Below, in pieces: positions 1,253 through 32,000 of a stretch of DNA of 32,000 nucleotides. The translations under genes were made by a program, and so were the position numbers. This stretch comes from Trichlorobacter lovleyi SZ. Lineage in GTDB: Bacteria; Desulfobacterota; Desulfuromonadia; Geobacterales; Pseudopelobacteraceae. Location of the stretch: positions 60,001 through 92,000 of the forward strand of contig NC_010814.1 of NCBI RefSeq assembly GCF_000020385.1, in the 5' to 3' direction. The notes under the pieces were generated by a model that saw only the letters and a list, made by a program, of their open reading frames with translations, did no database searches and was not told where the DNA came from. The stretch's first letter is position 1. Each line of letters starts with the position of its first letter.

Positions 1253-1376
1253 GTTTAACGGGTTGCCGCTGAGCCGCGAGCGGTGTTGCTAGGCTAACCT
1301 GCCAACGGACGACCGAGAAACAGGTGAAATGCAGCGCACAGTACGCCGGTCCGAGTTGATTGAGCCGTTAGGGATT
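1253..1376 (-). repeat. Possible attC-like junction downstream of hicB (inverse-core-like CCCTAAC ... CCCGTTAAAC)
   Basis: Read on the minus strand, CCAATCCCTAACGG (rc of 1365-1378) begins 19-23 nt after the hicB stop. CCCGTTAAAC (rc of 1253-1262) lies just before the tag RBS. Only TAACGG/CCGTTA pair clearly and the internal pairing is poor. Confidence 0.3.
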
Positions 1377-1395
1377 GGATAGATTGAGTAGCTGA

Positions 1396-1722
1396 TTATG
1401 AAGCATGTGCCAGAACGTCAGACGCCCACTGGTTTATACTTACGCCATGAGCCTGCGCCATCATGGCTGCCCGAGCGTGGACTTCTGGTGGTACACGCAG
1501 CATGAGCTTGCCGGAGTACGGTTTTTGTGGTGCTCTTCCAACTCTTTCACAGGTTGCAAGATAGTCGTCAACTGCCTCCTCAAACGCTGCTCTCAGTTCT
1601 TTCACGGTTTCCGCATGGAAGCCGATAACATCTTTGATGCCGGCAATATGCCCGATAAAACATGCATCTTCGTCGCTATATTCAATTTTTGCAGCATAGC
1701 CCTTGAATGTCATTGTGCTCAT
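1396..1722 (-). CDS. hicB: HicB-family antitoxin
   Basis: 108 aa. N-terminal HicB fold pattern (FKGY.A.IEYSDED..F.G.I.GI.D.I.FH) and C-terminal RHH-like tail (L.LRVP.E.H..A...A...G.S.N.W). Its start overlaps the hicA stop as ATGA. Confidence 0.9.
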   Translation of the reverse strand: MSTMTFKGYAAKIEYSDEDACFIGHIAGIKDVIGFHAETVKELRAAFEEAVDDYLATCERVGRAPQKPYSGKLMLRVPPEVHARAAMMAQAHGVSINQWASDVLAHAS

Positions 1723-1973
1723 GGTTTTACTCCTGCGTTCTCCAGGAACGCCCTTGCATCTTTAACTTGATATGGTTTGGCCTCTTTTGCAGGGTGCGGG
1801 CGATGAAAAGTACCAATTATGCCGTTTAGCTCAAACCTGACCCTTGAACCGTTGCCTTCAATTGTTTGTGCACCGAGTGCAACGAACAATGATTCAATTT
1901 TTCTCCATTCCAAAGTTGCTGGAACAGGAAGTGAAAAAATAGCAAGCAGTGTGCTACGGTGAGATTTATTCAT
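1719..1973 (-). CDS. hicA: HicA-family mRNA-interferase toxin
   Basis: 84 aa with the pattern W..IE.L...LG......GS.V.F.....I..FHRPHP.KE. It lies upstream of and overlaps hicB by 4 nt, the canonical hicA-hicB order. Confidence 0.85.
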   Translation of the reverse strand: MNKSHRSTLLAIFSLPVPATLEWRKIESLFVALGAQTIEGNGSRVRFELNGIIGTFHRPHPAKEAKPYQVKDARAFLENAGVKP

Positions 1974-2007
1974 GAATTAAGGTTACCAAAGTGTCTATAG
2001 GAGTGCA

Positions 2008-2020
2008 ATCAAATATTGAT
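2008..2020 (-). promoter_or_regulatory. Candidate HicB operator palindrome ATCAAATATTGAT
   Basis: 13-bp palindrome (ATCAA-ATA-TTGAT) 35-47 nt upstream of the hicA ATG. The position suits antitoxin autoregulation. It is short and sits in AT-rich DNA. Confidence 0.3.
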
Positions 2021-2035
2021 ATCATTGTTTTGAAT

Positions 2036-2093
2036 CCCTAACGGGGCTGAGGCTGACCGGCATGTTTTAGGCCGGTCTTGGCGCAGGTTGGAC
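2036..2093 (-). repeat. 58-bp attC/59-be-like imperfect palindrome (element B) downstream of the AbiGi-like gene
   Basis: The minus strand reads GTCCAAC-ctgcgccaa-GACCGGC-ctaaaacat-GCCGGTC-agcctcag-CCCCGTTAGGG. GTCCAAC fits RYYYAAC exactly and starts 12 nt after the AbiGi stop. The 7-bp stem is 2055-2061/2071-2077. Confidence 0.55.
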
Positions 2094-2104
2094 AACATTC
2101 TTTT

Positions 2105-2902
2105 TTAAAAGTCTTTTCTTATTTGTTCCATCGTAATGATTCTAGTTGTTAATAAATCAATATCATCTTTGGAATATTTTGCTTTTATATATCTGAGCTT
2201 TTTTATAAAGTCTAAGACTTCTGTCTCACTGTCTAGGATGATATATTTTATGTCGCTTGGGGAAAATGATAGTTTGAATTGTTGTAGCTTTGTATTGTTA
2301 TAGTTTCGTATATCGTCGGCAGTAAATTCTTCTTTAGTCAATGAAGGTTTAAACTTATATTGCAGCATAGAATCAAGAGATGGTACATATCTCCACTCCC
2401 TTTCATCGTAAAACCTTACACCATCAACATATTTACCATTTCTCCACAGGGTTCCTTCATAAGGCTTGGACATAAATAAAAACAGTTCTAAATAAACCGC
2501 AATAAAGTCAAGAGTGGCTGGTTTTATTGAATTTAAATCTATGAGCTTACCAACGCTTTCATGATAGCTACCACGTAAATAGCCAGCAGTGGTGGCTTTT
2601 TCATAGGTATACAAAACAGGCGATATGCCTTTTGACTTCCCCCAATCTTTACTCAATCCAATGGCATAATTACCATAATTCTTTGCATGATTTCGTATGC
2701 TTGACAGTGGAATATCACAAAAACATACCATTGGTATTGCTCTTTCGCATAAATGAGGCAGACGATTGTGTTTAGAATTGAACATGGAATGATCTTCTAA
2801 GCAATATCGCGGATAAAACTCATTTACAAGTATACTCTCAAGGATTGATAAGCTGCTTGTGTAATGAAATAAGGTATCTGCACTTATAGGATTATAGTCC
2901 AT
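2105..2902 (-). CDS. AbiGi-family abortive-infection protein (solo, no AbiGii partner)
   Basis: 265 aa. N-terminus ...ADTLFHYTSSLSILESILVNEFYPRYCLED..., plus CFCDIPLS and YDEREWRY motifs as I recall for the AbiGi family. Very AT-rich (about 30-35% GC by eye) against about 60% in the flanks. Confidence 0.7.
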   Translation of the reverse strand: MDYNPISADTLFHYTSSLSILESILVNEFYPRYCLEDHSMFNSKHNRLPHLCERAIPMVCFCDIPLSSIRNHAKNYGNYAIGLSKDWGKSKGISPVLYTYEKATTAGYLRGSYHESVGKLIDLNSIKPATLDFIAVYLELFLFMSKPYEGTLWRNGKYVDGVRFYDEREWRYVPSLDSMLQYKFKPSLTKEEFTADDIRNYNNTKLQQFKLSFSPSDIKYIILDSETEVLDFIKKLRYIKAKYSKDDIDLLTTRIITMEQIRKDF

Positions 2903-2991
2903 TGGTAACCCACATAAATATTGATGATATTTTTGTATAATTTCGAAAAAGCAGTTTTATCAGTTGTTCAACTCGTTAATCTGCGGTTTCC

Positions 2992-3019
2992 CGATATGCG
3001 TAACTTGTTACCTATATCG
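2992..3019. repeat. 28-bp imperfect palindrome CGATAT-gc-GTAAC-tt-GTTAC-ct-ATATCG upstream of the AbiGi unit
   Basis: Read directly from the sequence. It lies 19 nt beyond the GTTCAAC box (2966-2972), the same relative position as the GC palindromes at the other two cargo genes. Confidence 0.4.
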
Positions 3020-3331
3020 GCTACTTGTTCCTCATATAAGTAACCACCCAGCCAGCTCAAAAATCCATCAGCGCTGCAAATATTCAATCGCAGAATCAGC
3101 GGGTTATCCGTGTTTATGTAAATTGTCAATTCAATTTACAATTTGCACAACAGGGTCAACTGCCGGTAAAAAAGTGAGAAAAACAGGGGTACCACACGTC
3201 TTTATCGAGGTTGTGCATCCCATTGATTCTACTCCCAGGTCTGGAACAGAGCTTCTCGGTTCAAAACCGCTCAGCCTTCATTCATCGGGGCAGAAACCGT
3301 ACTGGTAATCACTGGGGCACACTGCACAAAC

Positions 3332-3763
3332 CTAATCCGTGATTTCCACGTAGCCCCACCATTGGTCTGTGGTGGTGAATATGTTGCATTTGATGTTGGG
3401 CGGACAGGTACTGGTGGAAAATCTTACCGCAGGGGCAGAGGATTGCGTGCCTCCAAAGTAACGGCAGGTGCACTCGGGTGCCGTGCCGTGTTTAAACTTG
3501 AATGTGCCATTGCACATACCGGCAGTGGTCGTAAATTTAGTGTTTGCCTGACTGTTGGGGGGGATCGTGCAGGGGCCGTTTTCGCTGGTACATGCGCCAG
3601 TGAACCATACATTGCCATGACCGGCATCCACGGTAATAGTTACGGGCTGGCTTGAGCTGTTTTTAACCGCACGATTCCAGCTTTCACCCCAGGCATTGGA
3701 GAAGCTGATAAAGAAAAGGCTTAAAAACAGAAGCACTGTCCGCCGTTGCCATTGTGTATTCAT
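3332..3763 (-). CDS. Secreted Cys-rich small protein (143 aa) if translated from the internal ATG
   Basis: The ATG at 3763-3761 is preceded by AAGGAG (rc of 3772-3777) at 8-nt spacing. The N-terminus MNTQWQRRTVLLFLSLFFISFSNAWG is a classical Sec signal peptide. The mature part has 7 Cys and no family I recognise. Confidence 0.55.
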   Translation of the reverse strand: MNTQWQRRTVLLFLSLFFISFSNAWGESWNRAVKNSSSQPVTITVDAGHGNVWFTGACTSENGPCTIPPNSQANTKFTTTAGMCNGTFKFKHGTAPECTCRYFGGTQSSAPAVRFSTSTCPPNIKCNIFTTTDQWWGYVEITD

Positions 3764-5194
3764 CTTTAGATCTCCTTGCTGTATGGGATAACGAGCGACT
3801 GCTGAGATTCCACCTCTTGCATTGGCGTGTGAAATCTCCAGGTCATTGACCTGAACAAAGGCCGGTACCACGATCGCAGTGGGGTTACGGGCGCCATAAC
3901 TACTGGAGGTGTTACTGACGACCTGGGTTTGGGAGAGCCAGGCCAGCCTGTTACCAAATATATCCAGCAGGCTTTGGGTGATGCGCACATTGTAGGGCAC
4001 GACCACGGAGCCCTCTTTGGTGAGCAGCAACGCGCCAAAGCGCGAACTGGCCGTGATCAGCCCTGTGGAGGGGTTGACGATATTCAGGTAATGCAAGGAG
4101 GGAATGTACAGCAGGTCATTGCTGTGGGGCAGGTCAACCAGTTCTTTGAGCGTGCTGACCTGCGTGTTACCACCGGCCAGTACAAGGCTCTTGTGCATGA
4201 CCGTGTGCCCGGTGGGTGCGGTGCCAAACTCATCCGCATCATCCTGGGACCAGGTGAATGACCGGAACACCCCGTTGGCAAAGATCGGGAACGGTTTGCG
4301 CGGCATGCCCATGAAATCGCGCTGAAACGGGAATGTGTCCAGACAGGTGGGATCATCGCTCAGGGTAAACCGGCTTGATAAAACCTTTTGGCCGACCTGA
4401 TCCCCGGTTATGAAGGAAAACCCGCGTTTCATGGAGCCGCCGTCAAAACCGATGAAGTTCATAATGTCAATCAGTTCCGCAATGGCAGCAGAGCCGAACA
4501 CGACATCATACCTGCCCAGCGCTAGCTGACAGGGCGTATCCTGTTGGTACTGCTCCAGCAGGAAGGCCAGGTCACGGTGCAGCGCGGACGGGTCCAGGTC
4601 AGTTATTTGCCGGGCCGACTGCTCGGCCAGCAGTTCCCATTTGCGGGTGGCATGCGACAGGACAATGCTGATCTGCGCATCCGTGGTCTTGAAATACTGG
4701 CAGTGTTCCGAACGGGTGGTGATCTGCGCAAGGGTGGTCACACCAGTGGAAAAAATCCCGGAAAGCGTGATCTCATCCGCTTCAAGTCCTGCCACAGCCT
4801 GATTGAAAAACTCCAGGCGTGCCGCATTGGTGATCCCGGCCAGGCCGGCATCAAAGCCGCTTTCATCAATAAATGTTTCTGAAAAGGCCGGCATGGTGGG
4901 CTGGTAGTCCAGCGCCTGAGCATGCTTGACCATCTCTGCAGCACGATCCACCCCCTGCCTCATCTCCGCCATATTGCCCAAGGCGGTGATCAGTTCAAAG
5001 CTGGCCCGTTTGCGCCCTTCATAGGCGGTGATCTCCAGACGCAGAAGATGTTCGTTGGTGTTGAGCGAAATGGCCGAGTTGGCGCACCGCATCAGACAGC
5101 TCTCTTCCTCGTGCAGGAAGAACGCGGCATCAATCTGTTTTGCAAGCGCATAGGTGCGCAGGTCGTGCAAGGTTTGCAGAATCTGTTCCTTCAC
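3332..5194 (-). CDS. PmbA/TldE-family metallopeptidase-like protein whose ORF lacks a stop and continues in frame into a signal-peptide/Cys-rich module
   Basis: 620-aa ORF. GTG start at 5194 lies 2 nt after the tldD stop, with AGGAGAG upstream. Residues 1 to about 459 look like the TldD/PmbA family without HExxxH. An 18-aa linker (RGGISAVARYPIQQGDLK) and the module below follow. Confidence 0.8.
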   Translation of the reverse strand: MKEQILQTLHDLRTYALAKQIDAAFFLHEEESCLMRCANSAISLNTNEHLLRLEITAYEGRKRASFELITALGNMAEMRQGVDRAAEMVKHAQALDYQPTMPAFSETFIDESGFDAGLAGITNAARLEFFNQAVAGLEADEITLSGIFSTGVTTLAQITTRSEHCQYFKTTDAQISIVLSHATRKWELLAEQSARQITDLDPSALHRDLAFLLEQYQQDTPCQLALGRYDVVFGSAAIAELIDIMNFIGFDGGSMKRGFSFITGDQVGQKVLSSRFTLSDDPTCLDTFPFQRDFMGMPRKPFPIFANGVFRSFTWSQDDADEFGTAPTGHTVMHKSLVLAGGNTQVSTLKELVDLPHSNDLLYIPSLHYLNIVNPSTGLITASSRFGALLLTKEGSVVVPYNVRITQSLLDIFGNRLAWLSQTQVVSNTSSSYGARNPTAIVVPAFVQVNDLEISHANARGGISAVARYPIQQGDLKMNTQWQRRTVLLFLSLFFISFSNAWGESWNRAVKNSSSQPVTITVDAGHGNVWFTGACTSENGPCTIPPNSQANTKFTTTAGMCNGTFKFKHGTAPECTCRYFGGTQSSAPAVRFSTSTCPPNIKCNIFTTTDQWWGYVEITD

Positions 5195-8847: not shown

Positions 8848-8919
8848 CGATAACGGGGCTCGGCATGACCTGCGCGGCAAGTTCTTTTTGCCGCGTCAGC
8901 GTCTATGCCGGTGTTGGAA
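8848..8919 (-). repeat. 72-bp attC/59-be-like imperfect palindrome (element D) downstream of the TIR gene
   Basis: The minus strand reads TTCCAAC-ac-CGGCAT-agacgctga-CGCGGCAA-aaagaac-TTGCCGCG-caggtc-ATGCCG-agCCCCGTTATCG. There are two paired segments with asymmetric internal bulges. The TTCCAAC box begins 13 nt after the TIR stop. Confidence 0.6.
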
Positions 8920-8931
8920 ATCTAATTCATG

Positions 8932-10086
8932 TCATAAGTTATAAGAGGCTACCGCGTGTAGATGAGGTCCGTCTTCCCTGAGATAAGACAATAACTCATA
9001 AAATGACACATCTACGCTCCATCGCCCCATGGCATAACCACTGACTTGACCTGTTGGAAAGAGGAATGTGAAGCGGTCTGCGCTGACAGTGTATGTTTTG
9101 AAATGACTAGCATCTTCACCAGCACCGTTTTTAAATGATTCGATCTGAAAATCACTCGGTGTCTCTCCAGTTCGGTGCCAGTACTCTTTCGATAGCTCAT
9201 GGATGCATATTTCACTTATCCTTTTGATAGCACCTTGAGAATCTGAAAAGAAATCGGTTAGTTCAAGCTTGCGCACTTTGTCGACGTACTCAAAATTATA
9301 TGTTACGTAATAATAATTGGGGTGGGCCGCACCTGCATAGTACAGCCCAACATCATATGTGAGACTCAGGAATCGGTCAGTGGCATGGACAATCGCGAAA
9401 TTTTCCCAACAGCCATTTACCGCAGCAGCCCCTCTGGTTTTAAAAAATTCAGGCTCCTGTTCCCATGGCTTCTGCCTTGCGTCGATCAGGTCCGCGTATG
9501 CTCTCCCTACGAACAGGGCAGACAGTTCTTTAGCGACATCGGGCTTTGATGTGGACTGAAATCTTGGATACTCGATCTCGATATTGTGACCAGGCAAACC
9601 GTCCCAGTTATCTTCTATTCTTTCCGTAAAGACATTGAAAGGACCTGCAACTACACCATGTTCCAATTCGATTGATTGCTGCTCAGATGCCAGTCTGAGT
9701 GCTGCCTTGACCTGATCCCAAGCGCCTGGAACATTAAGGTCAACGTATTGTAGCCGAGCAGCTATGTGAGTCGGTACCTCGCAAGGCTCAAGCAGCAGCG
9801 GTATTACGTAAATATCTGTAAGTTGCTTATATCTTAGGCGTTCTATCGCATCATTAGCTTCTCTCTGCACAAAGCCTCGCTTTGTCACGCTTCGCTTGCT
9901 GAGCAAAAGCACTACTACATTTGCATCGCTAAAAGCCCGCTCTATTTCCGCTTCCCAGTTCTGGCCTGGCAATAGGTGCTTAGAATCAACCCACGGGGAA
10001 ACTCCCTCTTTAGCCAGAAGTTCATAATAGTGCTCGGCACTTTCGCGGTCCTCCTTGGCATAGCTAATAAAGACTTTCAGAGCCAC
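8932..10086 (-). CDS. TIR-domain protein fused to an RsiV/PdaC-like DUF4163-DUF3298 domain
   Basis: GTG start with GGAG 5 nt upstream. N-terminal TIR pattern: KVFISYAKEDRE.A......L...GV.PWVD......G..W...I..A....NVVVLLLSKRSV.....VQRE. The C-terminal part shows IEIEYPRF.S......ELS, YYAGAAHPNYYYVTYNF....K..EL.DFF and FLFPTGQVSGYAMGRWSVDVSFYEL, matching my memory of DUF4163/DUF3298. About 45% GC. Confidence 0.75.
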   Translation of the reverse strand: MALKVFISYAKEDRESAEHYYELLAKEGVSPWVDSKHLLPGQNWEAEIERAFSDANVVVLLLSKRSVTKRGFVQREANDAIERLRYKQLTDIYVIPLLLEPCEVPTHIAARLQYVDLNVPGAWDQVKAALRLASEQQSIELEHGVVAGPFNVFTERIEDNWDGLPGHNIEIEYPRFQSTSKPDVAKELSALFVGRAYADLIDARQKPWEQEPEFFKTRGAAAVNGCWENFAIVHATDRFLSLTYDVGLYYAGAAHPNYYYVTYNFEYVDKVRKLELTDFFSDSQGAIKRISEICIHELSKEYWHRTGETPSDFQIESFKNGAGEDASHFKTYTVSADRFTFLFPTGQVSGYAMGRWSVDVSFYELLSYLREDGPHLHAVASYNL

Positions 10087-10111
10087 ATTATCTCCATTTA
10101 TTACTTTTGTT

Positions 10112-10180
10112 TTCCAACTTGCTATTCACCGGTTCACGCGCGCGCGTGAACCGGTGAACCTCCCAAACGGAATATTTATC
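10112..10180. repeat. Conserved junction repeat, copy 1, containing a perfect 34-bp GC palindrome
   Basis: TTCCAAC-ttgctat-TTCACCGGTTCACGCGCGCGCGTGAACCGGTGAA-cctCCCAAACGGAATATTTATC. The segment 10125-10158 is its own reverse complement. It lies between the PIN stop and the TIR start and aligns with 31015-31087. Confidence 0.85.
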
Positions 10181-10592
10181 CCGCTGCTGCAAAATATCCT
10201 TCTGCCGTGACCACACGGATGCTGCTCTTACGGTAATGCCGGACATTACGGGTGATCAGCCCGGAGCAGCGTGCGCTGAGTGCGCAAAAATACTGCAGCG
10301 CATCTTCAAAGTCGGTAAACCCGGCATGCAGGGCCTGCTCAACAATGGTATCATCCACCGCAACCACACTGACCAACTGTTTGAAGGTGCGCAGCACTTG
10401 TTGGGCCTGCGGGCCAGAGTGCTGCTTTCTCAGCAGATAGAACAGATTGGCAAAGGTAAGTGAAGAAACGCACAAAGTCAGGTTGCCTGCCTCTGCCTCT
10501 GAAAAAAGCCGCGCAGCAGCGTCATAAAACGGCTCACGCCGCGCAAGCAGATCAAGCACAACATCCGTATCAACGAACAGATACGGCTTCAT
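10176..10592 (-). CDS. PIN-domain toxin (VapC-like)
   Basis: 138 aa with N-terminal FVDTDVVLDLL, acidic residues spaced as in PIN domains, and ...DFEDALQ.... It overlaps the upstream antitoxin gene by 4 nt. Confidence 0.85.
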   Translation of the reverse strand: MKPYLFVDTDVVLDLLARREPFYDAAARLFSEAEAGNLTLCVSSLTFANLFYLLRKQHSGPQAQQVLRTFKQLVSVVAVDDTIVEQALHAGFTDFEDALQYFCALSARCSGLITRNVRHYRKSSIRVVTAEGYFAAAG

Positions 10593-10834
10593 CGGTATTT
10601 ATCCGCCAGATAATCGGTATAGTCCCGCTTGTAATCTTTGACTTTGGCAGCATCAAGTACGCCGGAAAGCTGGGCCACCAGTGGCGTTACCGGCCTGGTC
10701 TGCTCTTTGGGCGCAGAAACCTGCCGCAGGTAGCCTTCAATCAGCTTTGAAAGGCTCTGGTGCTGCGATTGGGCAAAGCGTTTGGCCTGTTCAATTACAT
10801 CGTGATCAAGGCTTAAGGTAAGTTTTGTGTTCAT
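10589..10834 (-). CDS. DUF6364-type antitoxin partner of the PIN toxin
   Basis: 81 aa. MNTKLTLSLDHDVIEQAKRFAQSQHQSLSKLIEGYL matches the pattern I recall for DUF6364 antitoxins. AAGGAG lies upstream of the ATG. Confidence 0.75.
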   Translation of the reverse strand: MNTKLTLSLDHDVIEQAKRFAQSQHQSLSKLIEGYLRQVSAPKEQTRPVTPLVAQLSGVLDAAKVKDYKRDYTDYLADKYR

Positions 10835-10894: not shown

Positions 10895-10931
10895 GCACAG
10901 TATGCAGATTAAAAACCGCCTCATCAGCAGT

Positions 10932-12152
10932 CTACTCCCTCTTTCCCAGCGTATCAACCTGTGCCAGTTGCGGGAACAACCGTATCCAGAGCCCTACCAC
11001 CAGCAAGGTGCCAATCCCACCGACCAACACCGAGGGCACCGTGCCGAACAGGGCAGCTGTGGCGCCGGACTCAAACTCGCCCAGTTGGTTGGAGGTGCCG
11101 ATAAACAGGGAGTTGACCGCACTGACCCGGCCACGCATTGCATCCGGGGTCTCGATCTGCACCAGTGAGGAACGAATCACCACGCTGATCACATCAGCCG
11201 CACCCAATACCACCAAAGCCACCAGCGAGAGCCAGAACAGCCGCGACAGGGCAAATACGATGGTGGCAATGCCAAACAGGGCCACAGCCCGGAACATGGT
11301 GCGGCCCACCCGACGCTTGAGCGGCCTGCGGGCCAGCCAGAGCGACATACCTAGGGCGCCTGCTGCCGGTGCAGAACGCAGTAGGCCCAGACCCCAGGGG
11401 CCGGTGACCAGGATATCGCGGGCATAGATCGGCAAGAGCGCCGTGGCACCGCCCAGCAAGACCGCGAACAGGTCAAGGGAGATGGCACCCAGCACCACCG
11501 GGTGTTGTTTGATAAAGGAGATGCCGGCAAACAGGGAGCGGTCACCGGTTGCCTCTGTGGTGAGGGTGTCTGACGGCCGGATGCAGGAGATCAGGATGCA
11601 GGCAGCCAGAAACAGCACGCCAATGGTGCTATAGACCGTGGTCACGCCAGCAGCGTACAACAGCCCGCCAATGGCCGGGCCCACAATGGTGGCGGTCTGG
11701 TTGGCCGAGGCAGACAGCGCCAGGGCGCGGGGCAGGTGCTCGCGCGGGACCAGACGCGGCACCAGGGCATGCATGGTGGGGTACTCAAAGGCCCGCGCAC
11801 TGCCGATCACACACATGACCGCCAGCAGGGCCTCCTTGCCAAGCCAGTGGTAATGGCTGCCAAGCACCAGCGCTGCTGCTGCCAGGGCCTCGATAAACTG
11901 GCAGGTACGGGCGATGGTGCGGCGGTCGTAGCGGTCAGCCGCATGACCTGCCACCAGGGTCAGCAGGACCATTGGCAGAAACTGGGCCAGTCCCACCAGC
12001 CCCAGGTACCAGGCGCTGCTGGTCAGGGCATACATCTGCCAGCCCACAGCCACCCCCAGCATCTGAAAGGCGATGGAGGAACCCATCCGGCCGAACAGAA
12101 ACAGGACCAGCGGCTGGGCCAGCGGGCTTTTGGTGGTATGAGCAGGCGTCAT
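10932..12152 (-). CDS. MFS transporter
   Basis: 406 aa with about 12 hydrophobic segments and the DRYDRR loop motif after TM2 that is typical of MFS. Confidence 0.85.
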   Translation of the reverse strand: MTPAHTTKSPLAQPLVLFLFGRMGSSIAFQMLGVAVGWQMYALTSSAWYLGLVGLAQFLPMVLLTLVAGHAADRYDRRTIARTCQFIEALAAAALVLGSHYHWLGKEALLAVMCVIGSARAFEYPTMHALVPRLVPREHLPRALALSASANQTATIVGPAIGGLLYAAGVTTVYSTIGVLFLAACILISCIRPSDTLTTEATGDRSLFAGISFIKQHPVVLGAISLDLFAVLLGGATALLPIYARDILVTGPWGLGLLRSAPAAGALGMSLWLARRPLKRRVGRTMFRAVALFGIATIVFALSRLFWLSLVALVVLGAADVISVVIRSSLVQIETPDAMRGRVSAVNSLFIGTSNQLGEFESGATAALFGTVPSVLVGGIGTLLVVGLWIRLFPQLAQVDTLGKRE

Positions 12153-12283
12153 AACAGGTTGGGATTGGAGCGGGGCAGGCCGTTATGACCTGCCCGCTTA
12201 CCAGGGTTGAGAAAAACGTCAAGAGGAAGACCGGCAAGGCATAGCCCACGCAACGCCTCAAACAGTCTCCGCACTGGTATTTT

Positions 12284-13450
12284 TTAGTGCAGGAACAGCC
12301 GCAGCCCGGTGTGATACATGGTCATGCCGTACTGCTGGGCTGCCACGGTCACCTCTTCATCCCGCAGGGAGCTGCCGGCATGGGCCACAAATTGGACATT
12401 GCTGCGGTTGGCGCGGTCGATGTTGTCACGGAACGGGATATAGGCATCGGATGAGAGGCAGATCCCCTGGAAACGCTGCACCCATTCCAGCCGTTCCTGG
12501 CTGCTGACCGGTTCAGGCGCCCGGGTCAGGCCGGACAGCATCTGGGCCCGCTCCGGCTCGGAAAGCTGATCCCAGAGCAGGTACTGGTCAACGATGTTGG
12601 CCTTTTCAGGCTTCTTGAGCCCATCCTTGAATGCCAGCCCCAGCACCTTGGGATGTTGCTGCAGCAGCCATTTTTCCGCCTTGTCGCAGGCCAGACGGGT
12701 GCAGTGCACACGGGATTGTTGGCCAGCCCCCATGCCGATCACTTGGCCTTCCAGGGCCAGGCAGACCGAGTTGGACTGGGTGTATTTGAGGGCAATGGTG
12801 GCCACGATCAGGGTCTCCAGTACCTCGGGTGAGAGTTCCTTGCTGGTGGTGACCGCATTCTGGAACAGCGCCTCGGTGATCTTGGTGGTGTTGCGCTGCT
12901 GACGCAGACCAAAGCCGAACAGCTCGCGGTACTCGACCCCTTCGGCCTCATAGGTGGGATCGATCTGGAAGATCAGGTAGCCGCCACCCTTTTTGGCCTT
13001 GAGGATCTCCAGCGCCTCAGGCTCAAAGCCGGGTGCGATGATCAGGTCCGAGACCTCCGTCTTCAGGACCTTGGCCAGGGAGACATCCACCACGTCGCTG
13101 ACTGCGGCCACATCGCCAAAGGAACACATCCGGTCGCCGCCCCTGGCACGGATATAGGCGTTGGCAACCGGCGAGAGCTCGCCCACGGTCAGAAACTGCG
13201 AAGCGCAGTACTCCGCGGACAGCGGACCGGACACGGCAGCACCTGCCGGGCTGGTATGCTTGAACGAGGCAGCGCCCGGCTTGCCGGTGGCAGCCTTCAG
13301 CTCGCGGGCAAGCTGCCAGGCGCCCAGGGCATCCAGGATGTTGATGTAGCTGGGGGTGCCGTTCAGGACCTTGAAGCCGGCCTGCTCCGGCAGTTCCAGG
13401 CTGGCAGGCACCTGATGGGGGTTACAACCGTACTTGAGTTCAATGTTCAT
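12284..13450 (-). CDS. AICAR formyltransferase domain protein (PurH-like, lacking the IMP cyclohydrolase/MGS domain)
   Basis: 388 aa starting directly with LKYGCNPHQ. It also has SFKHTSPAG and a C-terminal ...HTGLRLFLH as in PurH AICARFT domains. AAAGGA RBS present. Confidence 0.85.
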   Translation of the reverse strand: MNIELKYGCNPHQVPASLELPEQAGFKVLNGTPSYINILDALGAWQLARELKAATGKPGAASFKHTSPAGAAVSGPLSAEYCASQFLTVGELSPVANAYIRARGGDRMCSFGDVAAVSDVVDVSLAKVLKTEVSDLIIAPGFEPEALEILKAKKGGGYLIFQIDPTYEAEGVEYRELFGFGLRQQRNTTKITEALFQNAVTTSKELSPEVLETLIVATIALKYTQSNSVCLALEGQVIGMGAGQQSRVHCTRLACDKAEKWLLQQHPKVLGLAFKDGLKKPEKANIVDQYLLWDQLSEPERAQMLSGLTRAPEPVSSQERLEWVQRFQGICLSSDAYIPFRDNIDRANRSNVQFVAHAGSSLRDEEVTVAAQQYGMTMYHTGLRLFLH

Positions 13451-13461
13451 TATTTATCCTT

Positions 13462-14640
13462 TCAATTTTCACCCTCGGCCTCCTTGGCCAGAGGTAGCAG
13501 AATGGTAAAGGTTGTGCCGACGCCGACTTCACTTTGCACATCGATCCGGCCGCCATGCTTGTTGACCACAATATCGTATGCGATGGCCAGGCCCAGCCCG
13601 GTCCCTGTGCCCACCTCTTTGGTGGTAAAAAACGGGTCGAATATCCGCTGCAGATGCTCCGGCGCAATACCGCAACCGGTATCGCTGATGCTGATCCGGA
13701 CCAAGCCGTCCTCTTCCCGGGTCGTCAGTCTGATTTCACCCTGCTCCGCAATGGCATGGGCCGCGTTTACCAGGATGTTCAAAAATACCTGATTGAGCTG
13801 CCCCAGGTTGCACCAGACAGGCGGCAGCTGACCATAATCCCTGATCACGTTCGTTTTGTACTTCAGCTCGTTAGCGGCGATGGAGAGGGTGCTCTCCAGC
13901 CCTTCGTGGATATCGGCAGCGGCAAACTCCCCGCCATCCACCCTGGAGAAGCTCTTCAGGTCCTGCACGATCTTACGGACGCGCTGCGCCCCCTCAGATG
14001 TTTCGGCAAGCAGGTCCGGCAGATCCTGGCGAATCCGGTCGATCTTATAGGTCTGGCGCTCCCGGGCCAGCAGCGCTCTGGTTGCCGGATCGCATCCGTT
14101 CAGAAGCCTTTCATCGGCATCCAGATACGCTGACAGCTTTTCCACGTATTTGCCGAGACTTGCCAGGTTGCTGATGATGAAACCGATCGGGTTGTTGATT
14201 TCGTGGGCCACTCCGGCAGCCAATTGGCCGACGGAGGCCATTTTGTCCTGCTGGAGGAGCTGGGTCTGGGCCAGCTTCAGGTCGTCATAGGCCCGTTGCA
14301 CCTCTGCATTCCGGTCGTTCAGCTCACTCGTCCGCTCCTGTACGCGCTGCTCAAGCCCTTCATTTATCTCCTTCAATTTCAACTGATCCGATTTCTGATG
14401 CAGGATTAACCTTCCTACAAAAATCACGACCAGCAGCACCAGTATGCTGACAATAAAACCCGGCACTTCGCTCTTTATACCAAAAAACCGCATGCTTTGC
14501 TGAAACGACATCAGCATGATCATCAGGGTCAGCAGACCCATCTTCCAGCTTCTAATCCGTATCACGAGCACAATTGACCAGAGCAATGCGATCACGCGAA
14601 TCGTGATTGATAGAATGAGTTGATCGTTATAATTGAACAT
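13462..14640 (-). CDS. Membrane-bound sensor histidine kinase (no adjacent response regulator)
   Basis: N-terminal TM segments, H-box AAGVAHEINNP, N-box NILVNAAHA and G-boxes DTGCGI / GTGLGL. Start preferred at ATG 14640 rather than the TTG at 14646. Confidence 0.88.
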   Translation of the reverse strand: MFNYNDQLILSITIRVIALLWSIVLVIRIRSWKMGLLTLMIMLMSFQQSMRFFGIKSEVPGFIVSILVLLVVIFVGRLILHQKSDQLKLKEINEGLEQRVQERTSELNDRNAEVQRAYDDLKLAQTQLLQQDKMASVGQLAAGVAHEINNPIGFIISNLASLGKYVEKLSAYLDADERLLNGCDPATRALLARERQTYKIDRIRQDLPDLLAETSEGAQRVRKIVQDLKSFSRVDGGEFAAADIHEGLESTLSIAANELKYKTNVIRDYGQLPPVWCNLGQLNQVFLNILVNAAHAIAEQGEIRLTTREEDGLVRISISDTGCGIAPEHLQRIFDPFFTTKEVGTGTGLGLAIAYDIVVNKHGGRIDVQSEVGVGTTFTILLPLAKEAEGEN

Positions 14641-14730
14641 GGGCAATGGTCATCCTGTGGCGTCCGTATAAAATCCCTGCAGAGGCAGACTACTTTCAGG
14701 CACCGCAGGTTCTGTTTTGGTCAAGGATTG

Positions 14731-29986: not shown

Positions 29987-30062
29987 GGGTAACGGGGTGC
30001 CCGGTTGACCTGCCGGGGGCGGTCTTTATGCCCCCGGTCACGGTCTGACCGGCTTGTTGGGA
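29987..30062 (-). repeat. 76-bp attC/59-be-like imperfect palindrome (element E) downstream of the 290-aa gene
   Basis: The minus strand reads TCCCAAC-aagccggtcagaccgtga-CCGGGGGC-ataaagacc-GCCCCCGG-caggtcaaccgggcaCCCCGTTACCC. The perfect 8-bp inner stem is 30013-30020/30030-30037, and the outer GACCGG/CCGGT(T)GACC pairing has bulges. Confidence 0.55.
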
Positions 30063-30118
30063 TGTCTCTTAAGTTCCATTTTCAAGGTCTGCCCCCTCAT
30101 CTTGTTCTTCCAAGAGAG

Positions 30119-30991
30119 TTAACAATCAGTTACGACATGTTCTTGTATTTCCTCAATTGCATTTCTTGGGTTGTAAATTTCCGAATTAAATGGCCATAGA
30201 GGGTGCATCAGGGGAAATCTTGATATGTTGATTTGGGAAGGGTAGGAAGCACTTCTGAATGAAAGGTGGTTGTCGTACTGAGCTGACAAATAGTATCCTT
30301 CGTGCCCTTTCATCGCAGCAGCCTGGATATTCCCACCGACAAGTAAGTTTTGAGGATCCTCGATTTCTCTTCTTATTGCTCTTACACAAGCAATTTCCAA
30401 TGCAGTCTCGATCGGCATTCGTGGCTTACAAATCAATAACTTATTAACCTCACATAGAATAATACCCTTTATTTCGTTTTTTCTATCGCCAATAACTCCG
30501 AAATAGACACCGTGTTCATTCGGAACTTCCTCTAACGGGTATACTTCTCTAGGAGTTCCAATTTTTTCAAAAATCCTGGTTCGTCCTGAGTCATCTGCAA
30601 GCATAAATAAGTATTCAATTTCTTTGTCATAAGCAGTCCGCCAGAAGTTGTCTATAGTTTCGTCTATTATTTCGATCAGTTGATCAAATTTTGCTCCACC
30701 AAGCAATCCGATTATGACAGCTTCTAAATGTATTATGCTTTGAAGTCCAAGGGAGACTGCTCCTGCAACAGATGCAACAATGTCTCGGCGACCTCGTTTT
30801 CTATCCGACTTCATGACGTGCAGTTTGATTCCAAAATCATTTTGATGACATATTTCTGTATCTGATGGGATGTTGACAAAACCATTCTCGACATTCTTAT
30901 TCCTCACTACTGTCAGTCTTGAATCTGAGAGTGCCATGGCTTGATCATATGCTTCTCTATTAAAATGTCTGTATGAAATACAAAGCGTCAT
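30119..30991 (-). CDS. Hypothetical protein, possibly an HslV/proteasome-beta-like Ntn hydrolase (by-eye similarity only)
   Basis: 290 aa, about 40% GC. MTLCISYRH...AMALSDSRLT...IVASVAGAVSLGL...YLFMLADDSGRTRIF...VYFGVIGDRKNEIKG...EDPQNLLVGGNIQAAAM loosely parallels blocks of E. coli HslV and 20S beta subunits recalled from memory. The SD is weak. Confidence 0.6.
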   Translation of the reverse strand: MTLCISYRHFNREAYDQAMALSDSRLTVVRNKNVENGFVNIPSDTEICHQNDFGIKLHVMKSDRKRGRRDIVASVAGAVSLGLQSIIHLEAVIIGLLGGAKFDQLIEIIDETIDNFWRTAYDKEIEYLFMLADDSGRTRIFEKIGTPREVYPLEEVPNEHGVYFGVIGDRKNEIKGIILCEVNKLLICKPRMPIETALEIACVRAIRREIEDPQNLLVGGNIQAAAMKGHEGYYLSAQYDNHLSFRSASYPSQINISRFPLMHPLWPFNSEIYNPRNAIEEIQEHVVTDC

Positions 30992-31014
30992 AGTATTGTC
31001 GAGTTCCCTGAAGT

Positions 31015-31087
31015 GACCAACTAGTTATTGACCGGTTAACGCGCGCACGCGCGTGAACCGGTGATCTACCCAAATGGAATGTTTATC
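31015..31087. repeat. Conserved junction repeat, copy 2 (imperfect 34-bp GC palindrome)
   Basis: GACCAAC-tagttatt-GACCGGTTAACGCGCGCACGCGCGTGAACCGGTG-atctaCCCAAATGGAATGTTTATC. It aligns along its length with 10112-10180, with one 4-nt indel and a few substitutions. It lies between the Fic stop and the 290-aa gene start. Confidence 0.85.
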
Positions 31088-31104
31088 AATTGCGCCAGCC
31101 AGTG

Positions 31105-32000
31105 CTACCCAAGGCTTGCCTCAACTCCCTCGGGATACAGGCGCGGAAAATAATATCCTGCCAGCTCTGCTGGAAAACCAAGCCTGACCGGGCCTTTTTC
31201 AGAATCTGAAACCAGATAGCCTTTGCCTACAAGCGCGCTGATCACCCGGCGGGCCGAGCGTTCCGGCATGCCGATAATTTTGGGTATTTCTCCCCGTGGC
31301 AGTTCTCCCCGCAGGAAGATATCCCGCAGCAGATGACCGGCTTCTGGCTTCAGTTCACCCAGCAAAACCTGACGGTCAACCACCGCCTGTATCCGTTGCT
31401 GCATGCCATCCAGCTCCAGCAGGCCTGCCATAAAATCAATCTGGTCAATGGCGGTTTTTAGAAAGAAGCTGCAGAATGCCAACAGACCGGCTTGGGTCAG
31501 GTTTCCCCGGCCATCCAGATCACCCCGCCGGGGCTGATCAGCCCCGGCCAGGGCCGTAAGGTATGCCTCGCGATTTCTGGCAAATCCCCGGGAGACAGTC
31601 CATAAGCCATGCCCGTCCAGTCCGGCCTTTTTCAGGTAGGCATGGGTCATCAGACGGGTAACACGGCCGTTGCCATCAAGAAACGGGTGGATCCAGGCGA
31701 GGCGATGATGTGAGGCTGCCACGGCAATAACCTGTTGCTGGCTGTTGAGTATGCCGGGGTTGTAGACCTCTTCAAATCTTTGCATAAATGCGGACAGGCA
31801 GGCCGATTTGGGCGGCAGATGCCGTCCTACCTTAACCTCAGAGGTCCTGAGTAGGCCGGGAATCACTCGTTCTACGTTTCCGTCGGCATGCTGGACAACG
31901 CGGAACTCTTCCGGCATCCGTTCATAAAACTCGCTATGTATCCAGCAGAGAAAGTCCTTCGCAGTAATGATGGTTTCCGGGGCGGCCTCAAGCCGGGCTT
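31105..32000 (-). CDS. Fic-family protein (N-terminus beyond the window end)
   Basis: HPFLDGNGRVTR Fic motif and a C-terminal winged-helix-like tail. My translation upstream of the track's Met stays open to position 32000 (...APETIITAKDFLCWIHSEFYERMPEEFR), so the gene is 5'-truncated by the window. Confidence 0.88.
   Translation of the reverse strand, partial: ARLEAAPETIITAKDFLCWIHSEFYERMPEEFRVVQHADGNVERVIPGLLRTSEVKVGRHLPPKSACLSAFMQRFEEVYNPGILNSQQQVIAVAASHHRLAWIHPFLDGNGRVTRLMTHAYLKKAGLDGHGLWTVSRGFARNREAYLTALAGADQPRRGDLDGRGNLTQAGLLAFCSFFLKTAIDQIDFMAGLLELDGMQQRIQAVVDRQVLLGELKPEAGHLLRDIFLRGELPRGEIPKIIGMPERSARRVISALVGKGYLVSDSEKGPVRLGFPAELAGYYFPRLYPEGVEASLG

Follow-up and report, generated by a model that had tools for sequence, protein, structure and literature searches.

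A conserved GC-hairpin element of Geobacteraceae and Desulfuromonadales as a probable docking site for integron cassettes away from integrase genes

A 32,000-nt stretch of the Trichlorobacter lovleyi SZ genome (contig NC_010814.1, positions 60,001 to 92,000; termed the window and numbered from its first letter) contains two copies of an element of about 70 nt, both on the minus strand, in which a GC-rich hairpin is followed by a short spacer and the sequence G|TT, where the bar marks the crossover. The AT-rich cargo genes that begin at this point are integron gene cassettes. The cassettes have the layout TTRRRY-gene-attC and adjoin the element exactly at its G|TT; they are exchanged or lost while the element and its upstream flank stay, and this flank is commonly a toxin-antitoxin (TA) operon co-oriented with the cassettes. 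These results suggest, with a probability of roughly 0.7, that the element is a lineage-specific, fixed recombination or docking site for integron cassettes, which lies away from integrase genes and is used in trans. Integron cassettes are thought to sit in one array beside the integrase gene intI, the recent exception being the rare and nearly sequence-independent insertion at attG sites. What is described here would be a bacterial family with a conserved and reusable landing site that has no adjacent integrase, at which cassettes turn over, many of them with phage-defence genes.

The two copies in the window are as follows.

10116 to 10182, minus strand: element copy 1, about 67-70 nt, aligned with copy 2 and matched by a profile hidden Markov model (HMM) and a degenerate pattern.
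31019 to 31088, minus strand: element copy 2, about 67-70 nt, aligned with copy 1, with an imperfect 36-nt palindrome at 31029-31064.

An earlier note on the window had described a repeat of about 70 bp at these two places, and its bounds are refined here to those given above. The perfect 34-bp palindrome that the note had read in copy 1 is present at 10125-10158 (TTCACCGGTTCACGCGCGCGCGTGAACCGGTGAA; core GGTT-N14-AACC), and its fold as DNA has a free energy of -20.5 kcal/mol (z = -5.2). Copy 2 differs from copy 1 by a (CG)n centre that is longer by 4 nt and by two differences in the arms, so that the 4-nt indel and the two arm mismatches of the note are confirmed by the alignment. The alignment on the minus strand, GATAAAYATTCCRTTTGGG-NNNN-TCACCGGTTCACGCGCG...AACCGGTSAATARCWAG|TTGG, also bears out the conservation that had been proposed outside the palindrome on both sides. 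Copy 1 reads, in this order on the minus strand, a left box GGGATAAAT (the left box is also written GGATAAATGTTCC), a small TTCC..GGAA inverted repeat, the GC hairpin, the spacer AATAGCAA and G|TT. The crossover lies between 10118 and 10117 in copy 1 and between 31021 and 31020 in copy 2. The 'GTTGG box of the inserted gene' in the note is real and is the core site of the cassette, and the repeat stops exactly at its G|TT. A 40-nt degenerate pattern for the left half of the element has exactly two matches in the window, which are these copies, and none in 100 dinucleotide-preserving shuffles. Likewise, the HMM, for which 104 copies from other places were used, has no further match in the window.

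The AT-rich genes of the window and their recombination sites are the following.

8854 to 10117, minus strand: integron cassette 1, which starts with TTGGAA... and ends at the G of ...GAGCCCCG|TTATCG; TIR-domain/DUF3298 gene at 8932-10086 (Pfam and PADLOC TIR) plus attC.
8848 to 8919, minus strand: attC of cassette 1, with R'' TTCCAAC, a bulged hairpin and R' GTTATCG; fold -21.1 kcal/mol, z = -5.3.
29993 to 31020, minus strand: integron cassette 2, which starts with TTGGTC... and ends with ...GCACCCCG|TTACCC; gene for a 290-aa protein at 30119-30991 without a family match; 39-44% GC.
29987 to 30062, minus strand: attC of cassette 2, R'' TCCCAAC ... R' GTTACCC; fold -20.2 kcal/mol, z = -4.1.
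2042 to 2971, minus strand: AbiGi cassette, gene at 2105-2902, attC at 2036-2093 (GTCCAAC...CAGCCCCG|TTAGGG).
1298 to 2041, minus strand: HicAB cassette, hicA at 1719-1973 and hicB at 1396-1722, with a weak or degenerate attC at about 1292-1373 (R'' CCCTAAC).

The GC content of the window is about 58%, and three islands (1.5-3.0 kb, 8.5-10.1 kb and 30.0-31.0 kb) are AT-rich. Behind every AT-rich gene comes a hairpin of the attC type, RYYYAAC ... GTT, on which the earlier note had not remarked. The start box of each cassette is complementary to the first box (R'') of its own attC, at 7/7 positions for the TIR cassette (GTTGGAA/TTCCAAC) and the HicAB cassette (GTTAGGG/CCCTAAC), at 6/7 for the AbiGi cassette (GTTGAAC/GTCCAAC) and at 5/7 for the cassette of the 290-aa gene (GTTGGTC/TCCCAAC). 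Such complementarity marks an integron cassette that is circularly permuted, TTRRRY-gene-attC-G. The fold of the HicAB attC is no better than those of its shuffles (z = 0.13), and the 3' limit of this cassette is approximate. The two copies of the element lie, as had been reported, between a toxin-type gene and an AT-rich gene, namely between VapC/PIN and the TIR-domain protein and between Fic and the 290-aa protein. The note had offered as one explanation that the element is the second end of a hairpin-ended (IS200/IS605- or PATE-like) element. This explanation is not supported, because the other end of the insert is a canonical attC that matches the start of the cassette itself, and the window contains neither a transposase nor an integrase gene.

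The element is not confined to this genome. A scan of a genome collection with a pattern for the hairpin gave 44 loci in about 35 genomes, all of them Geobacteraceae/Desulfuromonadales, with 1-3 copies each; the hosts include Geobacter, Trichlorobacter thiogenes and many metagenome-assembled genomes. A scan of metagenomes with the left-half pattern gave at least 119 further copies, so that at least 150 distinct copies are obtained after removal of duplicates, and the named ones all come from Geobacteraceae/Desulfuromonadales. The element is a low-copy, conserved family specific to this lineage. Its length is about 67-75 nt, and its layout on the sense strand is GGATAAAT, GTTCCATTTGGGAAG, the GC hairpin TCACCGGTTCACGCG-(CG)n-CGCGTGAACCGGTSA, a spacer AYAACGA and G|TT. 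As judged from copies whose flank was free of search-pattern constraint, conservation starts at GGATAAAT, 24 nt 5' of the stem, and stops at GTT and a weakly conserved R, with information of about zero outside. The sequence is about 85-95% conserved across genera. The left box is 16-17 nt from the stem, and the stem is 7-9 nt from G|TT on the other side. The junction is at G|TT in 129 of 150 copies, and the box that follows the element is GTTRRRY-like, with GTTGAAC (18 times), GTTATAC (9 times) and GTTGGTC (8 times). The commonest spacer is AATAACGA, and most copies contain ...AAC-N2-3-GTT. No match to the arm and core string of the element was found in the searchable literature, none to the element in the plasmid, phage and viral-contig collections searched, and nothing relevant in Rfam, either over the window at gathering thresholds or over the locus at permissive ones.

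The cassette signature seen in the window is also found across the family. At least 400 nt of downstream sequence are available for 118 copies. In 21 of these, a downstream AAC...GTT hairpin opens with the exact reverse complement of the 7-nt box adjoining the element, as compared with a mean of 2.05 and a maximum of 4 in 20 permutations of the boxes among loci. With one mismatch allowed, the count is 48/118 against a permuted mean of 23.3 (maximum 28). The attC sites recovered in this way are canonical, RYYYAAC ... bulged stem ... GTTRRRY, and diverse among cassettes; one of them is AAC-CA-GGCCCTTG-G-AC...GTC-AAGGGC-GCAGGCC-GTT, with one extrahelical G. When 26 attC sites were aligned with MAFFT and folded with RNAalifold, no pairs were predicted, the 5' ends being misaligned. 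The mere density of AAC...GTT hairpins, compared up- and downstream (0.26 against 0.16 per kb), carries no information, since this motif reads the same on both strands and is matched spuriously in GC-rich DNA. The mean GC content is 52.8% upstream and 43.7% downstream of the element, and it is lower downstream in 93 of 106 copies (Wilcoxon p = 6e-16). The first downstream open reading frames (ORFs; n = 109) match 105 Pfam families, including TIR, Mrr, PD-(D/E)XK, HNH and AbiTii, and some are PADLOC candidates. This diverse cargo with its defence families agrees with the view of integron cassettes as defence reservoirs, which is put forward in two preprints (bioRxiv 10.1101/2024.07.02.601686; 10.1101/2024.07.02.601719). 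Locus L157 carries on its minus strand a close relative of the TIR cassette of the window, with 85% protein identity and with the same leader GGAGATAATGTGGC as at window positions 10060-10117. The element in front of it is a different copy, whose upstream flank is unrelated, indicating that the same cassette is docked at two elements.

Comparison of orthologous sites separates the element from its cargo. The copies were clustered on the 250 nt upstream of the element into 20 groups of orthologous sites, and in 19 of these the sequences differ immediately after G|TT. Locus L105 has the same AICARFT-MFS-vapBC-element order to the left of the junction as the window but a different single cassette, and its right junction is that of the window (...CCCCG|TTATCGCACATGG, also read as ...CCCCG|TTATCGCACATGGCTTGC...). 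The vapBC operon and the element of the window are followed by three further cassettes at L090, L153 and L177. At L180 the same site holds two other cassettes, of which the first has matching boxes (7/7), and vapC is reduced to a remnant of 20 nt. About 97% of the scorable copies are occupied. Copies without cargo, for which the earlier note had proposed to look, exist at three loci. The element is followed directly by native DNA and cobS at L043, whereas its ortholog L040 has a four-gene insert of 2.9 kb and 42% GC at the same point; the other two empty copies are followed by gatB (L046) and uvrA (L051). Because orthologous elements carry changing cassettes or none, the element is no part of the cassettes. 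In addition, the block AICARFT-MFS-vapBC-element-cassette (window 10900-14650) is absent in L181-L184, which are T. lovleyi-like strains with 90% identical ArgD, and a HisKA/HATPase gene directly adjoins argD there. The interval between these two genes thus varies beyond the scale of a single cassette.

The junction upstream of the AbiGi cassette is formed by a different sequence.

2970 to 3041, minus strand: family-B docking site, TTACTTATATGAGGAA plus an AT-rich palindrome plus GGGAAACCGCAGATTAACGAG|TT; crossover between 2972 and 2971.

The earlier note had regarded the palindrome at this junction (2992-3019) as analogous to the element. A palindrome is indeed present and the terminal 9 nt are shared, but the sequence belongs to another family, termed family B, with the consensus TTACTTATAT(A/G)(G)GGAAACCGNAGATTAACG(A/T)G|TT. 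Further copies are located at L185 (7664-7715), L186 (7641-7692), L148 (minus strand, around 740) and L028 (1185-1260). Their cassettes differ by genome, being AbiGi and HicAB in the window, a TIR_2 gene in L185 and L186 and other cassettes in L148. In L181-L184 there is neither a family-B site nor a cassette, and the adenine glycosylase gene comes immediately after TldD. The bodies of family B and of the GC-palindrome element are unrelated, and only the last 9 nt, ATTAACGAG|TT, are common to them, with ...AAC-N2-3-GTT included. The common denominator is therefore the core ...(A/T)TAAC-GA-G|TTRRRY, and the recombination function is accordingly placed at the 3' end of the element, the rest being treated as accessory. 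The AT-rich palindrome of the window site is inserted between short direct repeats, and L185 and L186 have none. The earlier suggestion of a 'preferred hairpin target for insertion' is thereby divided. Its first half, a target, agrees with the 19 of 20 groups that differ after G|TT and with the empty copies; its second half, recognition of a hairpin, is less certain, as the family-B site of L185 has the same ...TAACGAG|TT end but no palindrome. Beside this site, the PmbA/TldD-type ORF at window positions 3332-5194 (minus strand) encodes 620 aa, whereas the related strains L180, L185 and L186 have an ORF of 461 aa and a separate one of 143 aa. The 143-aa ORF is wholly absent in L181-L184, and the extra C-terminal part in the window lies just upstream of the family-B site.

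The absence of a palindrome at L185 would also be expected if the GC palindrome had no role in recombination, being a REP-like palindrome or a stabiliser of mRNA 3' ends, and if cassettes used any GTT (attG) in an AT-rich, non-essential spacer. A strong hairpin (about -20 kcal/mol as DNA) directly past co-oriented genes is in line with this explanation, as is the insertion by IntI1-3 at loose GWT sites genome-wide (bioRxiv 10.1101/2022.09.11.507474). It is nevertheless quite improbable. The occupied copies, nearly all of those that can be scored, are always occupied at the same nucleotide, and the conserved block ends exactly at G|TT and takes in the ...AAC-N2-3 spacer, which the unrelated family B has in common with it. 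Rfam gives no match, and a scan gave no terminator-like site; an intrinsic terminator was excluded on this result and on the lack of a T-run, the sequence past the stem being AATAACGAGTTG. The element resembles REP/BIME sequences in that it is a GC-rich palindrome just past genes. It differs from them in its low copy number, in the long conserved flanks on either side of the stem and in the fixed recombination junction at one end. A REP element was ruled out by the 1-3 matches per genome in about 35 genomes, obtained with a strict pattern. The earlier note had named a high-copy REP without association with AT-rich inserts as the finding that would refute its proposal, and the low copy number and the AT-richer downstream side are the opposite of this.

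The genes upstream of the two copies in the window are the following.

10176 to 10834, minus strand: vapBC-type TA operon immediately 5' of copy 1, with a DUF6364 antitoxin at 10589-10834 and a PIN toxin at 10176-10592.
31105 to 32000, minus strand: Fic-domain gene 5' of copy 2, which runs past the end of the window and encodes 404 aa in near-identical strains.

The stop codon of vapC is the TAA within the left box of copy 1 (10176-10178). In the family, a co-oriented ORF ends within 200 nt upstream of 96 of 112 copies. TA components account for at least 30 of the 58 small upstream ORFs, with the domains PIN (11), ParE (5-8), DUF5615 (3), PemK (2) and Gp49 (2), and with HEPN, MNT, Phd, YafQ, Fic and HTH antitoxins among the others. 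The larger upstream ORFs include Fic (5) and RhuM (3), and the remainder are assorted housekeeping genes. The GGATAAAT TAA is the stop codon of the upstream ORF in 15 of 112 copies, including the vapC-type case of the window; this is far above random expectation and suggests that the element abuts or replaces the 3' ends of genes. Two direct copies are present at each of five loci. At four loci, L029 (AbrB/PIN), L062 (vapBC), L079 and L130 (Phd/ParE-like), the 0.75-0.9 kb between the copies hold exactly one TA operon. This arrangement indicates that a TA operon plus an element acts like a unit, which is able to sit behind another copy of the element. At least four attC junctions occur in positions 1-3600 of L028, which are a real cassette array, and the element lies there 27 nt past an attC, after a leader remnant TTAGACTTCAAAAAGTGACAAAA. 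The same leader opens a later small-gene cassette of this locus, which ends in a half-element without hairpin (2540-2580), so that the element may once have been the 3' end of that cassette.

The position behind TA genes had led to the earlier proposal that the element is the attC of the preceding TA cassette. In a broader form, the element would be the attC of a TA gene-cassette family, later cassettes would have been added by attC x attC recombination, and the loci would be small clusters of attC sites lacking integrases (CALIN) seeded by a TA cassette. The positional part of this proposal stands: in at least a third of the copies, a TA operon of the same orientation ends at the element, TA operons are enclosed by direct copies at the four loci named above, and the element of L028 follows an attC junction within a real array. 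Moreover, the 7-9 nt between the stem and G|TT are attC-like, and a canonical inverse core, GGCCAAC, is present in copy B of L079 and in L053, with GGATAAA in most other copies. The structural part does not stand. The consensus left box GGATAAAT is not RYYYAAC, and its 16-17 nt to the stem contrast with the 7-9 nt on the other side. DNA folds of both strands give the central hairpin only, plus a possible 4-bp TTCC/GGAA stem, and no closing helix; the left box and the right flank show no compensatory changes among the copies compared. For the four TA units whose 5' start is known, the start box matches the left box at only 4-5 of 7 positions. What is conserved across genera is the sequence and not the structure, unlike in attC sites. 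Finally, many copies follow housekeeping genes, although the 20-nt remnant of vapC at L180 shows that TA genes can be deleted. It is therefore unlikely that the element is an attC of TA cassettes.

The arms of the GC hairpin are almost invariant, whereas the (CG)n centre varies by steps of 2 nt, giving a stem-loop segment of 27, 29, 31, 33 or 35 nt. The palindrome core is accordingly GGTT-N(10,12,14,16,18)-AACC. The shortest variant, GGTTCACGCGCGTGAACC, matches GGTT-N10-AACC, which is the LexA motif of G. sulfurreducens (PMC8565304), and integron recombination is controlled by the SOS response in other bacteria (PMC3108266). The palindrome might thus be an operator of the neighbouring genes, such as a LexA box, and the association with cassettes secondary. 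This is very improbable, because N10 is found in only 6 of 104 copies; the others have N12-N18, with N18 in 40 copies, and the window copies have N14 and N18. At spacings of N12-N18 the half-sites are out of register for a dimer, and the conserved left box and the spacer to G|TT are left unexplained. Steps of 2 nt in the centre between fixed arms are more easily reconciled with folding or a cruciform than with a double-stranded operator of set spacing, and the variation in centre length favours either such a folded form or the absence of any spacing constraint. The alternating CG tract is, in addition, prone to Z-DNA formation and to slippage.

For the docking site that is favoured here, comparison with the known classes of sites gives a mixed result. 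The element is like attI in that it is the fixed 5' edge of the cassettes with a variable first cassette, which owns the TTRRRY beyond the G|TT crossover, in that conservation stops at GTT(R), and in that it is conserved in sequence and specific to a lineage. It is unlike attI in that it is not beside intI at about 190 loci, occurs several times per genome at unrelated chromosomal sites, has a GC hairpin of 27-36 nt and is sometimes in tandem with a TA operon between the copies. The sequence ...AAC-N2-3-GTT resembles what is presumably the inverted L/R 'simple site' of attI1, and the upstream ATGTTCC box resembles what are taken to be the direct repeats of attI1. Like attC (59-be), the element is found at the 3' end of (TA) genes, has a hairpin with G|TT 7-9 nt past the stem and can separate consecutive units. 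Unlike attC, it has no inverse core or R''/R' helix except for the GGCCAAC of the two copies mentioned above, its stem is nearly perfect and not bulged, with a basal C.C mismatch as the sole regular irregularity, and its sequence is about 90% conserved across genera instead of being variable. One or two attC-bearing cassettes far from an integrase gene, with a G-W-T junction, are also what is seen at attG sites, in single attC sites lacking integrases (SALIN) and in small CALIN. At attG sites the integrase inserts at GWT with weak flank preferences, at hundreds of thousands of positions (Loot et al., bioRxiv 10.1101/2022.09.11.507474). The element differs from this in that the site is marked by a conserved block of about 70 nt, which stands before the junction in at least 150 copies, is retained at orthologous loci of different species and is used repeatedly, by different cassettes. 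TA cassettes are known to stabilise sedentary chromosomal integrons (PMC13108822). The present TA operons are similarly tied physically to cassette arrays and plausibly guard against loss, but they lie upstream of the docking site, outside a classical array.

If the element is a docking site, the host integrase IntI, acting in trans, would recombine the folded bottom strand of an incoming attC with an attI-like core, as in attI x attC recombination. IntI would act at ...AAC-N2-3-G|TTRRRY, at the 3' end of the element. The TA operon would supply read-through transcription as a stand-in for the cassette promoter Pc and would protect the locus from deletion. Units of a TA operon plus an element would move to new places or to other copies of the element, either by IntI or by homologous recombination.

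Several results weigh against this interpretation. A tblastn search with a validated IntI1 query detects no integron integrase in the window or at any of the approximately 190 loci, and in a search for IntI1 homologues the best 120 matches are all IntI1-like proteins with at least 74% identity, so that no IntI of Geobacteraceae was reached. In favour of the interpretation, at least two intI genes are reported for G. lovleyi (PMC2426708), and the ArgD of the window is 100% identical to a T. lovleyi protein. The element fits no known class of att sites cleanly, as it lacks the R''/R' closing helix and is conserved in sequence far above attC. Both search patterns needed parts of the hairpin, so that diverged copies are missed in part and the counts per genome are too low. 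The element-TA-element arrays could have arisen by homologous recombination between copies. With arms that hardly vary, the hairpin offers almost no covariation as evidence of pairing; the single compensated change is CCGG>CCAG / CCGG>CTGG in copy B of L079, and 61 of 104 copies have a C.C mismatch as their outermost pair. Changes in the right arm that give G.T or C.A number 18 and 13, respectively, with no clear strand preference, and such an asymmetry was set aside as evidence because these numbers are not decisive.

Two other candidates for a function of the locus were rejected. An upstream 'TTTTMATGWKCACAG' extension was considered as the start of a divergent intI, but lpxC and the other genes upstream there are unrelated to it. 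The second candidate was a sigma-70 promoter within the element, but the single weak match falls within the cassette leader.

Isolated cassettes (SALIN, small CALIN), insertion at attG and TA cassettes in chromosomal integrons are already known. No description was found of a conserved, multi-copy docking element that is lineage-wide, reused at orthologous loci, coupled to TA genes and neither attI, attC nor attG. It is tentatively proposed that the element represents a new class of integron site, distinct from these three, and that together with the TA operon it forms an integrase-less 'satellite platform', in which the TA promoter would drive the cassettes and the TA pair would provide addiction. 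In this proposal, which is less certain than the docking function itself, dispersed copies would be served by one IntI in trans, defence cassettes would be spread over many loci, and the GC hairpin or cruciform would make the targets far better than an ordinary GTT. If IntI uses the element, integron biology would be more distributed than array-centred surveys, such as those that sort sites into integron, CALIN and SALIN with IntegronFinder, suggest, and the known range of DNA substrates of IntI would widen. The element would then also be a simple marker for cassette-borne defence genes in genomes and metagenomes of Geobacteraceae.

The genes relevant to the element are all on the minus strand, and the remainder of the window is ordinary chromosomal DNA. 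According to identical-protein look-ups, strains that are near-identical by VapC, ArgD and HGD-D all have the same cassettes as the window. Six short-read Logan contigs (L003-L008) stop inside the perfect palindrome of copy 1, whereas the imperfect copy 2 is traversed. These contig ends are probably an effect of a palindrome longer than k on the de Bruijn graph, which could be mistaken for strain variation.

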